Assembly: GCF_030013595.1 (NCBI RefSeq) | Contig: NZ_CP122769.1 | Strand: one strand, 5' to 3' | Length of the DNA stretch: 64,000 bases | DNA from: Escherichia coli | GTDB taxonomy: Bacteria; Pseudomonadota; Gammaproteobacteria; Enterobacterales; Enterobacteriaceae | Shown: in pieces, positions 44,901 to 47,900 of the stretch | Numbering within the stretch: position 1 is the first letter of the stretch | Layout of the letters: each line of letters starts with the position of its first letter | Made by a program: the position numbers

Positions 44901-47900
44901 TCTTATAAGCCTGGCCTGATACAAAGGGCGTATCTTTTATTAGGGGTTGCTCAGGGCTGGCGTGGGCACCAGTAATTACCAAAGACATAAGCAAAACCAT
45001 CTTTGAAGGCGCTAATGCAATACGAGTCATAGACCGTTCTCCTTTTCTGATGCGGTTATGATGGCATACAAAAAAAAGGTTAGAGCTCGTATAGCATGGT
45101 CGTTTTTATGTTGAAAAGGACGGAAAAGGAGTGCTGACTAAGAAGATAGTCTCGGTGATGGAAAGATCATCCATCTTGCACATTGTGAAAAATCCGGTGT
45201 AACAAAAACATGGTTTTATCGAATATCTAAAAGCAAATATTGCTTTGAAAACAGGTGTATTAAGAGCTGAAAAAAATCATCACCAGTAACGCTGTTTCTA
45301 TATTTCAAAGAAGGAATAGCTAAGGATCAAAGAAGCGAACTTAGGCAAGAATATAAAATATATTAATTGAAAGCGATTAAGAAGTCGTCATGCATAGAAG
45401 GTTTTAGAGAACCTAAGTAGTTTTACGTTTTCAACAGAAAAAAAGGTGAACATTTTTTGGAACGAAGAAAGACTGTATAAAGAAAAATCAAATTATATCT
45501 TTACTTGTCAAGAGTTAATATTTAAGTTGTAACTAATATTTGATTGTAAAGCAAACAACAGAATTTGACTTAAGTCAATATTTAGATTCAGACAAGGCAA
45601 GTTTCGCGATATCTTTTTTAAATTTAATCTAATTCTTCTTGAGAATACCTCTCTATGGCTGAAGCAGTTGAAGATAATCTGCAACGTGGACAATAAGCAT
45701 CATTTGTCACTGGCACAATGTATGGGCGTTTACATTTTTCGCAGGCACCTAGTTCTTCAATTTCTTTCATAGAAGTAAGGATTTCTATTATTTTATTAAC
45801 TTCCGGTGCGCATACAAAGTATCCCAGATTATGAAGGACACTCATTATTCGGTTGAAGTCAATTTGCCGAAAACTCGCTTCCGGATTTATTGGATCAAAA
45901 CCAAAATAGTTAACTGCGACATCAATAACAGCAGAAAAAGCTCGGCGGTTATCTGTGCGTTTGCTCCAGCCCCGGATACCTTTTTTGAGTTTTGTTTTTG
46001 CACCAGGCTCAAAATCGATATTTTCAGCAACATGATTACCGTACAAAATTCGTATTGTATTTTTATTTGCCCCAAGCGACATAGTCCTTGCTGCTCGCAA
46101 TAGAGCATTAGCTTTTGTTTGATCGACCTTTGCCATATTAATAATCCTTTAACATAACTTTATTTGTTAAAGTGTTGAACACATCCTGACGGTGACTGGT
46201 GAACATAGTGTCATAACGTAATAGTTCCATCAAATCATCACTAACTTTTCCTAACCGGATGTCAGCAGACAATTCATAAGCCCAGGCAAAAACTTTCGTT
46301 TTAAGTGAAACACTCTCTTCAATATGCCCTTGTGAGAAAGCAATTGTACGTGGGAAAAGAACGACATCGTTAATTGTTTTTAACGATGAATAACCAATGT
46401 CTTTAATAGCATCAGCTGTAGTTGGTTTTAAACCAAAGAAAACACTTACAAACTCTGGTGCGAGCATTGAGATAAAGAACACCTGCATAAAGTAGTCATT
46501 CTGTATATCAACACATTTAGAACGCAACTCATGAATCTTCTTGGGATTATAGATATCCACTGTACCATTCAGAAAAGTCACTTTTTCACCGGCATCGTAA
46601 ATACCATAGTCAATATCATTTGTATCATATTCACGAATTACATTGGAATCACCGTCCAAGACCGCAGAAAAAAACCTCTCCCATGTAATTTCCTTTCCGA
46701 GTGTACGCGGAACCAAAAAACTACCTGGACGTGTTTCCACTTCAAAAGCTAAATCAGCGGCTGTACTAAATCCTTTCCCAAATAGGCGACGCTGGAGAAG
46801 AGGAGTCCCAGTTTGATATGCAGAAGATCCATGCACAGGCAATAACATTAAAAATGCACGGTAACTACGAATAAGCGAAATCTCAGTGCGGAAAAGTTTA
46901 CCGAGTAAGCTACGAGTTAAATTATCAGATTCTGACATGTGCTGATTGTCCTTGCGCCATTACAATTGTTCAAATCTTCAACATGGATTTTTTGTTAGGT
47001 GTTCGGTAGGGTGAAAAGTAACTTTTAGTATTTTCTTAAGGCTTGAATAAGCCTTAAATCTATCCCTTCAACCACACCGCTTACTTGTAACACTTTTTAA
47101 CCAAACTGACCAGAATTTTATCAAAATTTCTTCGCATGCTAACGAAATGTGAAGCGATTAAAAAAAAACCTAAATCCAGCCCCTCCCAACGTTGGATTAG
47201 AATAACGACGTCTTTCACTGACCGTCATAAACTGACATTTTTACTTTTCATCAACCTCATGCTTACATAGGATCACTAAACAAAAGTGTCACTATGGACA
47301 AAGTTCCATAGGGTCATTTTTTTTGGAAAAGTGGCACTAGATATATGTATAACTTTAATAGAGCAATGCACATTATCAAAAGCAATAATCCACAATGGTC
47401 ATTCCCTCAAAAGTAACTTTAGAGGGTAGCGATGGAAGTGAGGCTAAACTCGCTGTTACTGTTTCTGAAGGCCCCTCCCGAATGGGGGAAACAGCGAGTG
47501 CATTACATCTGTTCAATTCCCTCATCAAAGAGCATTCAAAAATCTTCTGTTCGTGAAAAAAAACGGAAATTTCCTCCGGTATAGTAATTTCACATCAGGA
47601 GGCGTCATGAGTAATTCGAATCTTATAAGTTCTATAGAGCTAACACGTAAAAATTTACGTGCTCAGATTGAAGGTTTGCGTGTTGAGGCTGAAGATCTCA
47701 TTACAAAATACTGGATCAAGTGGAAGGAACGAAACCACCAAGAGATTAACCTTACCCGACATAGCAAAGTTCCAAAGAGGGAGTATCTGGGTTCTTACGC
47801 ACCAAAAGTTGAGCTAATTGGTAATGCCAGAAAAGTAACGATCACTTGGCATCAGTTCAGCCCTTATAAAACAAGAGCGCCTAGTCACATGTCAAAACGG

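Follow-up and report, generated by a model that had tools for sequence, protein, structure and literature searches.

The window analysed here, a 64,000-nt stretch of Escherichia coli DNA, contains a 668-bp intergenic region between two divergent operons, where the DNA is 100% identical to IncHI2 plasmids apart from a 90-bp gap. On the left lies trhR (46138..46938, minus strand, 266 aa, from the ORF list), which starts at 46938 as the first gene of a regulatory operon and is followed by a trhY-like gene (45624-46136, 170 aa). Some related records annotate the first gene as trhR, and Pfam and NCBIfam searches with it returned no match; in R27, TrhR and TrhY are tra activators (PMC7366339). On the right lies traH (47607..48092, plus strand, 161 aa, ATG at 47607), encoding a MobI-family mobilisation factor (Pfam MobI PF19456, E 2.7e-22) that RefSeq names MobI(A/C) and whose R27 homolog has been termed a MobI-like factor (bioRxiv 10.1101/2025.04.21.649884). 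Downstream are traI (48830..51982, plus strand; RefSeq start 48836), coding for a MobH-family relaxase (NF041494, E 5.7e-76), and a gene for a TraD-type coupling protein (51982-54066; TIGR03743, E 2.9e-203). With trhR and traH as its borders, the region extends over 46939-47606, exactly as the preliminary description had delimited it, and the minus-strand regulatory genes and plus-strand relaxosome operon that it placed on either side are those just listed.

The trhR-traH gap has a GC content of 38%, compared with 46.8% for the whole window, and comprises several distinct elements. In particular, a conserved AT-rich block (47080..47168, CTTACTTGTAACACTTTTTAACCAAACTGACCAGAATTTTATCAAAA...GCTAACGAAATGTGAAGCG.TTAAAAAAA, 31% GC) is nearly invariant between IncHI1 and IncHI2; a Leclercia plasmid with an orphan mobI (product 40% identical) retains part of it next to that gene, and it is not recognisable in IncHI3 or in a K. 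variicola plasmid. A promoter scan predicts a TG-extended minus-strand promoter within the block (-35 TTAGCA at 47142-47137, -10 TAAAAT at 47120-47115), which could drive trhR and could by itself account for the block's conservation. Inspection by eye gave no convincing match to IHF-type or IncP-type nic consensus sequences in the block. At the other end, the traH promoter-proximal region (47545..47606, plus strand), also conserved between IncHI1 and IncHI2, holds a small palindrome, ACGGAAATTTCC(TCC)GG (47563-47579), a -10-like TATAGT (47580-47585, plus strand) and the ribosome binding site AGGAGG (47597-47602, plus strand). The scan of the gap found no plus-strand sigma-70 consensus match and no recognisable -35 for the traH -10, which suggests activator dependence; in R27, traH and trhR are both strongly regulated, traH 12-fold by temperature (PMC7366339).

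Two inverted repeats in the gap had been proposed as markers of a relaxase nick site. The short one, CTATGGA-N6-TCCATAG at 47292..47311, is present as described (arms at 47292-47298 and 47305-47311, 6-nt spacer). The long one has perfect 10-nt arms, ACTCGCTGTT at 47448-47457 and AACAGCGAGT at 47490-47499, separated by 32 nt; it ends at 47499 rather than 47500, and the nested, GC-rich spacer attributed to it corresponds to a small CCCC/GGGG stem. For perfect repeats with 7-nt arms and 3-10-nt spacers, the frequency per 668 bp is 0.53 across the window and 0.59 in shuffled sequences, while 0.05-0.10 repeats with 10-nt arms and a spacer of up to 40 nt are expected per 668 bp. Folding z-scores for the two repeats are about -2.7 to -2.8. 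Both repeats are real and each is weakly beyond chance; neither is prominent alone. Further, an Rfam search of 46700-47800 found no match, so no known RNA accounts for these hairpins. The long repeat was rejected as an intrinsic terminator, having no T run on either strand; the short one does score as terminator-like (7 pairs, 3 of them GC, followed by GGTCATTTTT) and was likewise rejected, its stem and T run being array arms conserved as DNA palindromes. Neither motif string was found in the relevant papers of the literature searched.

The short repeat owes its significance to its membership of a conserved repeat family, as it runs from the right arm of one array unit across the spacer into the left arm of the next. 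The array is made of 31-35-bp palindromes (CATAGGGTCACTT...AAGTGACCCTATG) with a period of 43-45 bp, and in the full form the units are 33-35 bp long, follow the consensus CATAGGGTCACTT-N5-8-AAAAGTGACCCTATG and recur every 43-44 bp. Normal IncHI1 and IncHI2 plasmids, R478 included, carry four units; the window carries two and is 90 bp shorter, and the family is invisible from the window alone because this copy has lost most of the array. Alignment with pSE08-00436-1 and other alleles, with R478 as the full form, places the deletion junction within 47278..47285, between 47281 and 47282 with an ambiguity of 3 nt. Unit A (47266..47296, CATAGGATCACTAAACAAAAGTGTCACTATG) is a hybrid created by the deletion, its left arm coming from unit 1 and its right arm from unit 3; unit B (47307..47340, CATAGGGTCATTTTTTTTGGAAAAGTGGCACTAG) is unit 4 of the full array, and its right arm with the adjoining ATATATGTATAACTT is invariant between IncHI1 and IncHI2 save for one mismatch in pHCM1. 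Compared with its relatives, the window holds a rare allele: a deletion of 90 bp, running from one repeated unit to another, has left two units, one of them hybrid. Short alleles occur in about 6 of ~955 IncHI2 records (~950 of 955 retain four units), and such deletions have recurred independently, with 86-, 89- and 90-bp junctions and an 88-bp one in an IncHI1-type remnant. The two-unit allele may be defective or may work fully; an additional repeat made no significant difference in IncA/C (PMC5587640).

The array half-sites are concentrated at this locus. Allowing up to 2 mismatches, 7 of 13 matches to AAGTGACCCTATG in a 265-kb IncHI2 plasmid, and all 4 of the exact ones, fall in the trhR-traH gap, which holds their sole cluster; within the 64-kb window, the gap accounts for 3 of 5 matches. 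Run on both the short and the full-length gap, Tandem Repeats Finder reported no array; only a repeat-pair search revealed it, because the inter-unit spacers are not conserved.

Five MobI lineages drawn from a plasmid collection share one architecture: an array whose arms co-vary with MobI, a AAAAGTNACTTT palindrome and then mobI, with a clear upstream AT-rich block in 3 of the 5. IncHI3 has four units with arms CATTGGTAWCTTTT..AAAAGGTACCAATG upstream of a mobI whose product is 32-39% identical, the K. variicola plasmid has three units upstream of mobI, and Leclercia and Enterobacter plasmids have seven or five (YATGTTYAACTTTT..AAAAGTTRAACATR, 44-45-bp period, MobI 40% identical). The Leclercia lineage has mobI and the array by themselves, with no trhR/trhY, relaxase gene or traJ nearby, so that MobI is the only protein co-inherited with the array; both Leclercia/Enterobacter and IncY plasmids carry orphan modules of this kind. 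The co-variation of arm sequence with MobI lineage, and the inheritance of the array with an orphan mobI, hint that the cognate MobI may bind the repeats. That MobI/TraH binds DNA is an assumption of the literature ("thought to bind"), where MobI is described as self-associating, binding the TraI C-terminal domain and setting oriT selectivity (bioRxiv 10.1101/2025.04.21.649884). In the AlphaFold2 model (pLDDT 85.8), TraH forms a long hairpin of helices plus a small sheet; the model displays no known DNA-binding fold, a PDB sequence search and Foldseek gave no informative match, and the predicted structure argues neither for nor against binding to DNA.

That oriT lies in this gap was to be expected from R27. 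The comparison with the R27-type region that had been suggested succeeds, the gap aligning with the trhR-traH gap of the R27-like IncHI1 plasmid pHCM1 at 80% identity over 56% of the query. Position, flanking genes and length class (757 versus 758 bp in the full form) agree, and the conserved block, four-unit array, both palindromes and traH promoter are held in common, whereas the spacers, including the long repeat, are unrelated, and the window has two units to the R27 type's four. In 2002, Lawley and colleagues reportedly cloned the R27 segment between traH and trhR and found that R27 mobilised it. In addition, oriT directly adjoins a mobI-type gene in R27, SXT, IncA/C and Rts1 (PMC10838148, PMC5587640, bioRxiv 10.1101/2025.04.21.649884; R27 and SXT in PMC10838148), and oriTfinder calls an oriT in the equivalent gap of the IncHI2 plasmid pGS32-1 (PMC13055346). 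Converted from pGS32-1 in this analysis, that call covers about 46924-47175 of the window; it takes in the AT-rich block and leaves out the array and both inverted repeats. The array's exclusion may reflect only where continuous BLAST identity to R27 ends.

The trhR-traH gap is therefore a likely IncHI2 oriT region, homologous to that of R27, belonging to a MobI-dependent MOBH1 system and overlapping the divergent trhR and traH promoters. Several features of MOBH1-type origins are present: the gap lies upstream of a mobI-family gene, a MobH relaxase is encoded, the sequence is homologous to an oriT, and it is AT-rich with repeats. As a candidate oriT or operator region the locus stands, because it corresponds by homology to the R27 (IncHI1) region adjoining the reported oriT and lies upstream of MobI and MobH genes; the two inverted repeats do not stand as its key elements. 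The conserved parts, judged from alignments, are the sequence block and the palindromic array rather than those hairpins, and the block at 47080-47168 is a candidate oriT core or nic region. The expectation of a nick beside the repeats is not supported, as the short one is an array junction, the long one has no IncHI1 counterpart and both fall outside the oriTfinder match; it is also without precedent in MOBH1, since none of the MOBH1 relaxases has a mapped nick site (PMC5587640).

Related systems share much of this layout. The oriTs of IncA/C and SXT/R391 (MOBH12) are AT-rich, lie immediately upstream of mobI, overlap its promoters and contain multiple inverted and direct repeats; as for this gap, their nic is unmapped (PMC5587640), and MobI is essential and sets specificity (PMC5587640; bioRxiv 10.1101/2025.04.21.649884). 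Compared by description only, the IncA/C oriT spans ~150 bp, abuts mobI and contains 14-bp overlapping direct repeats, unlike the IncHI array, which begins ~270-480 bp upstream of the gene. Relaxase-less mobilisable islands such as MGIVchHai6 carry an oriT upstream of their own mobI and use the helper's TraI (bioRxiv 10.1101/2025.04.21.649884; PMC7449626). The orphan array-plus-mobI modules on Leclercia/Enterobacter and IncY plasmids have the same layout; MGIVchHai6-type islands hitch on IncC helpers, and the IncHI-type modules are putative hitchers.

By analogy with MOBF, MOBQ and MOBP origins, the long repeat could be a relaxase-recognition hairpin with nic beside it. Its perfect 10-bp stem folds better than shuffled sequences on both strands (z of -2.8 and -2.5), it has the array on one side and the relaxosome operon on the other, and it is identical in both IncHI2 sublineages. 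Such a role is nevertheless improbable. No counterpart, by sequence or by fold, exists at the homologous position in three IncHI1-type plasmids, although TraI is 77% identical between IncHI2 and IncHI1 over its first 594 residues (nearly identical over aa 40-480); the IncHI3 stretch folds into an unrelated GC-rich stem, and the Leclercia module has no equivalent. Moreover, the repeat is unique in the plasmid, occupies a sub-block of the gap that is richer in GC (49%) and less conserved than any other, and is of a type found in ~4% of shuffles of the region and ten times in the 64-kb window. These comparisons indicate that it is a lineage-specific, IncHI2-specific feature with no evidence of function. 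For the flagged repeats, a chance origin in an AT-rich gap and the lack of any function in themselves are possible but doubtful: the expected numbers (0.5-0.6 of the short type and 0.05-0.1 of the long type per 668 bp) allow it, yet such a reading applies at most to the long repeat, the short one being built from conserved array arms.

The gap could also serve transcriptional control only, its array and palindromes being operators through which TrhR/TrhY, HtdA or another regulator acts on the divergent trhR and traH promoters, with oriT elsewhere. The promoter-like elements, the strong regulation of traH and trhR in R27 (PMC7366339), the activator dependence suggested by the traH -10 and the two copies of a plasmid-wide palindrome would all fit. 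Even so, this account is unlikely: the array motif is absent from all other tra promoter regions, including the TrhR/TrhY-controlled F, AC, Z and AN operons (PMC7366339), the array persists beside an orphan mobI with no trhR/trhY nearby, and R27 has been reported to have its oriT beside traH (PMC10838148). The two roles, control and transfer origin, are compatible, and overlap in IncA/C (PMC5587640). A partition centromere or other maintenance site would be suggested by architecture alone. The F sopC site consists of 12 tandem 43-bp repeats, each with a short inverted repeat, and the IncHI array resembles it in its 43-45-bp period, in having one palindromic, potentially protein-binding site per unit and in its variable copy number. 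This is very improbable: in IncHI2, ParA/ParB and ParM are encoded ~85 kb away round the circle (16.5-23.5 kb versus 195 kb in the 265-kb record), sopA/parB of the Leclercia plasmid are 17 kb from its array, and in 5 of 5 lineages the array goes with mobI rather than with par genes. The array also differs from sopC in having non-conserved inter-unit spacers.

For the preferred reading, an IncHI2 oriT region, the normal order would be the AT-rich block, four palindromic units, the AAAAGTNACTTT palindrome, a variable spacer, the traH promoter and traH. The MobI-type TraH, probably as a multimer, would occupy the palindromic units and recruit the MobH relaxase TraI, which would nick most plausibly in or near the conserved block; occupancy of the units by TraH might also feed back on the divergent promoters.

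Two palindromes in the gap belong to a wider set. P1 (47014..47026, AAAAGTAACTTTT) lies ~75 bp upstream of the trhR start and is identical at the orthologous IncHI1 position; P2 (47404..47426, CCCTC-AAAAGTAACTTTA-GAGGG) lies ~198 bp upstream of the traH start, and its motif follows the array in 5 of 5 MobI lineages, persisting beside an orphan mobI in a plasmid otherwise devoid of it. The motif, AAAAGTNACTTTT, occurs in 46 copies across the IncHI2 backbone, against ~1 expected. Its distribution is plasmid-wide rather than tra-specific, with two copies in the gap; its arms are kept at orthologous IncHI1 positions, even inside genes, while the central base varies, and it shares the word AAAAGTNAC with the array half-sites. 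Tentatively, and with less than even confidence, AAAAGTNACTTTT could mark an undescribed plasmid-wide protein-binding network of IncHI plasmids, maybe tied mechanistically to the oriT-MobI module, with a logic comparable to that of KorB in IncP plasmids. If so, TraH/MobI or a partner would be both an oriT-recognition factor and a global regulator or organiser of the backbone.

IncHI2 plasmids count among the main vehicles of mcr-1, mcr-9 and ESBL genes, and the functional parts of their oriT, once known, would help to predict what these plasmids can mobilise. In the two-unit alleles, nature supplies deletion mutants suited to gauging how many MobI sites are needed, and the lineage-specific arms suggest a simple code for oriT-MobI specificity. 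Plasmids with orphan array-plus-mobI modules, including IncY phage-plasmids and those of Leclercia/Enterobacter, are called non-mobilisable by typing tools, and may be mobilisable by IncHI helpers.

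The gap between the trhR start at 46938 (minus strand) and the traH ATG at 47607 lies within Tra1 of an IncHI2 plasmid; hundreds of IncHI2 plasmids of type MOBH/MPF_F match the window DNA at 100% identity. The genes on either side identify the region. Upstream of the gap, the minus strand carries a 266-aa gene (which some records name trhR), a second gene of 170 aa and a TraF-like one; downstream, the plus strand encodes a 161-aa MobI-family protein (TraH; PF19456, E 2.7e-22), a 245-aa membrane protein, a MobH relaxase (TraI; NF041494) and a TraD coupling protein of the SXT type, with a DUF4400 (TraJ-type) protein further on.

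The top database matches to the window all split into two aligned pieces, and alignment with the complete 265-kb IncHI2 plasmid pSE08-00436-1 shows that 90 bp, equal to two copies of a ~44-bp unit, are missing between 47281 and 47282. The full-length IncHI2 gap, which is also the form of the prototype R478, spans 758-759 bp and contains an array of four palindromic units whose starts are 44, 44 and 43 bp apart: CATAGGATCACT-AAACAAAG-AAAAGTGACCCTATG, CATAGGGTCACTT-ATGTTTG-AAAAGTGACCCTATG, CATAGGGTCACTT-TTTAT-AAAAGTGTCACTATG and CATAGGGTCA-TTTTTTTTGG-AAAAGTGGCACTAG. The window retains unit 4 (47307-47340), preceded by a unit 1/unit 3 hybrid (47266-47296), and the short inverted repeat CTATGGA-N6-TCCATAG (47292-47298 and 47305-47311) is therefore an inter-unit junction, joining the right arm of one unit to the left arm of the next. 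Other lineages show that the natural unit is the palindrome and not this junction, because one inter-unit spacing has widened to 56 bp in IncHI3 and Klebsiella variicola plasmids while the palindromes remain unbroken.

The preliminary description had singled out that short repeat and a longer one, ACTCGCTGTT (47448-47457) and AACAGCGAGT (47490-47499), with a small CCCC/GGGG stem nested in its spacer. The sequence and a repeat search confirm both positions, and both repeats are unremarkable taken singly: per 668 bp, chance yields about 0.5-0.6 perfect repeats with 7-nt arms and about 0.05-0.1 with 10-nt arms, ten of the latter being present across the window. The long repeat is a weak candidate for the hairpin that the relaxase would recognise, because it occurs once in the plasmid, lies in the most GC-rich sub-block, and falls within a spacer that is unalignable between IncHI2 and IncHI1, despite a similar TraI (77% identity over the first 594 residues, with a nearly identical catalytic part). 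At the homologous positions, IncHI1 sequences show no folding advantage over shuffles (z of -0.5 to -1.5). Overall, the description of the gap as an oriT-type region stands, and for broadly the right reason; the elements it pointed to do not, one being an array junction and the other unconserved in IncHI1. A further perfect inverted repeat with 9-nt arms, TTAAGGCTT-N4-AAGCCTTAA, lies upstream of trhR (47036-47057), was passed over in that description, and is not conserved in IncHI1.

Among about 955 IncHI2 records that span the gap, about 950 carry the long form of the array. Besides the 90-bp deletion of this window, short alleles comprise an 89-bp deletion in a single UK pig-farm plasmid, represented by four records, and an 86-bp in-register deletion between right arms, present both in an E. 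coli plasmid of US human origin and in an Enterobacter plasmid from Spain whose backbone has diverged. Further, a separate 88-bp deletion marks the IncHI1-type remnant carried by an IncY plasmid, and two Leclercia-lineage plasmids differ in having seven and five units. These distinct junctions and unit numbers imply that array deletions recur, and the dominance of four units despite recurrent deletion suggests selection for the full array.

Using TraH and more distant MobI proteins as tblastn queries, three further lineages were found. The IncHI3 plasmid p721005-HI3 (MobI 32-39% identical to the window TraH) has four units with arms CATTGGTAWCTTTT..AAAAGGTACCAATG; a K. variicola plasmid (32%) has three units whose arms differ again; and Leclercia/Enterobacter plasmids (40%) have seven or five units with a 44-45-bp period and arms YATGTTYAACTTTT..AAAAGTTRAACATR. 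The inner ACTTTT/AAAAGT is invariant across all lineages, the outer arms vary with the MobI lineage, and a AAAAGTNACTTT palindrome lies 28-70 bp past the array. The mobI gene of the Leclercia lineage is isolated together with the region upstream of it, with trhR/trhY, the relaxase and traJ all absent nearby. Such orphan array and mobI modules occur without a relaxase on plasmids typed non-mobilisable, either IS1-flanked on IncY P1-like plasmids (NZ_OQ534123.1, IncY, 3996-5151) or standing alone on Leclercia/Enterobacter rep_cluster_2218 plasmids (NZ_CP107263.1, 1850-2941; NZ_OQ821056.1, 6548-7486), and these modules may hitchhike on helpers of the IncHI type.

Across an alignment of IncHI2, IncHI1 pHCM1, one IncHI1B-typed plasmid and two remnants, the conserved parts of the gap are the trhR-adjacent 100 bp with a palindrome at 47014, an AT-rich block (47080-47168) that hardly varies, the array, a second palindrome at 47409, and the promoter-proximal 60 bp of traH; the spacers among them are unalignable. 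The AT-rich block is still recognisable in the Leclercia module (TAACACTTTTTTAACC...GAATTTATCAAC), and has no recognisable copy in IncHI3 or K. variicola. A promoter scan predicts a TG-extended minus-strand promoter within this block, and the putative traH promoter has a -10 element and no -35.

The array could have been an operator for TrhR/TrhY or HtdA, a reading disfavoured by the confinement of its half-site: in pSE08-00436-1, half-sites cluster solely at the trhR-traH gap (7 of 13 matches when up to 2 mismatches are allowed, and every one of the 4 exact matches). None of the other tra promoters of that plasmid contains the half-site, which argues for a site dedicated to the oriT-MobI module rather than a general tra operator.

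Lawley et al. (2002) reportedly found that the R27 traH-trhR gap, once cloned, was mobilised. In SXT and R27, a mobI-type gene directly adjoins oriT (PMC10838148), and R27 TraH is regarded as a MobI-like factor (bioRxiv 10.1101/2025.04.21.649884). The IncA/C oriT is an AT-rich repeat array of roughly 150 bp upstream of mobI, overlapping the mobI promoters, where attempts to map the nick site (nic) were unsuccessful (PMC5587640). For IncHI2 pGS32-1, oriTfinder places oriT 1746-1997 bp ahead of the point where the relaxase gene begins (PMC13055346), which converts to 46924-47175 in the window, a trhR-proximal, BLAST-alignable segment that excludes both repeats of the preliminary description. MobI is described as self-associating, binding a C-terminal domain of TraI and dictating the choice of oriT-mobI module (bioRxiv 10.1101/2025.04.21.649884). 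The analysis shows position, homology, architecture, covariation and motif exclusivity; in the mechanism proposed, TraH/MobI multimers would occupy the palindromes and recruit TraI via its C-terminal domain, with nic probably in or near the AT-rich block; array occupancy may also act on the divergent promoters. The AlphaFold2 model of TraH (47607-48092) is confident (pLDDT 85.8, pTM 0.79) and combines a long antiparallel hairpin of helices with a small sheet of three strands, and the MobI fold appears structurally uncharacterised, because a Foldseek search of the PDB gave no significant match (best E 0.098).

The palindromes at 47014 and 47409 are copies of a 13-bp palindrome, AAAAGTNACTTTT, found 11 times in the window with at most one mismatch (34048, 34949, 37042, 43954, 46573, 47014, 47409, 50832, 52270, 54000 and 58902), compared to 0.22 expected. 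The complete IncHI2 plasmid has 46 copies (24 exact), compared to 1.07 in block shuffles, making it the commonest 6-N-6 palindrome by a wide margin; it is missing from the resistance region, and 19 of the 46 copies fall in non-coding sequence, which makes up 20% of the DNA (two-fold enrichment, p about 0.001). Moreover, IncHI1 sites are orthologous in position, retaining the arms with a free central base, even within trhR, trhH and traD, where flanks are just 71-79% identical. In a Leclercia plasmid, the palindrome is confined essentially to the mobI neighbourhood. The literature searched contains no earlier description of it. In pSE08-00436-1, TTTCTG-N-CAGAAA (six copies) ranks second among 6-N-6 palindromes, behind AAAAGT-N-ACTTTT. 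The copy at 37042 borders an HNH-endonuclease gene (37147-38436, minus strand), located between HAD-domain and TraG_N genes of the IncHI2 Tra1 region, with no counterpart at the equivalent position of IncHI1 pHCM1 (L023, 10637-10884). A 590-bp gap without a sizeable ORF, between trhY-like and TraF-like genes (45031-45623), is presumably the F-operon promoter region activated by TrhR/TrhY, and both the array motif and the palindrome are absent from it.

Overall, the trhR-traH gap shares homology with the R27 oriT and is probably an ordinary representative of a class already known, the MobI-dependent MOBH1 oriT; its added interest lies in the MobI-covarying array architecture, in the rare allele with half the array that this window carries, and in the palindrome that recurs across the plasmid.
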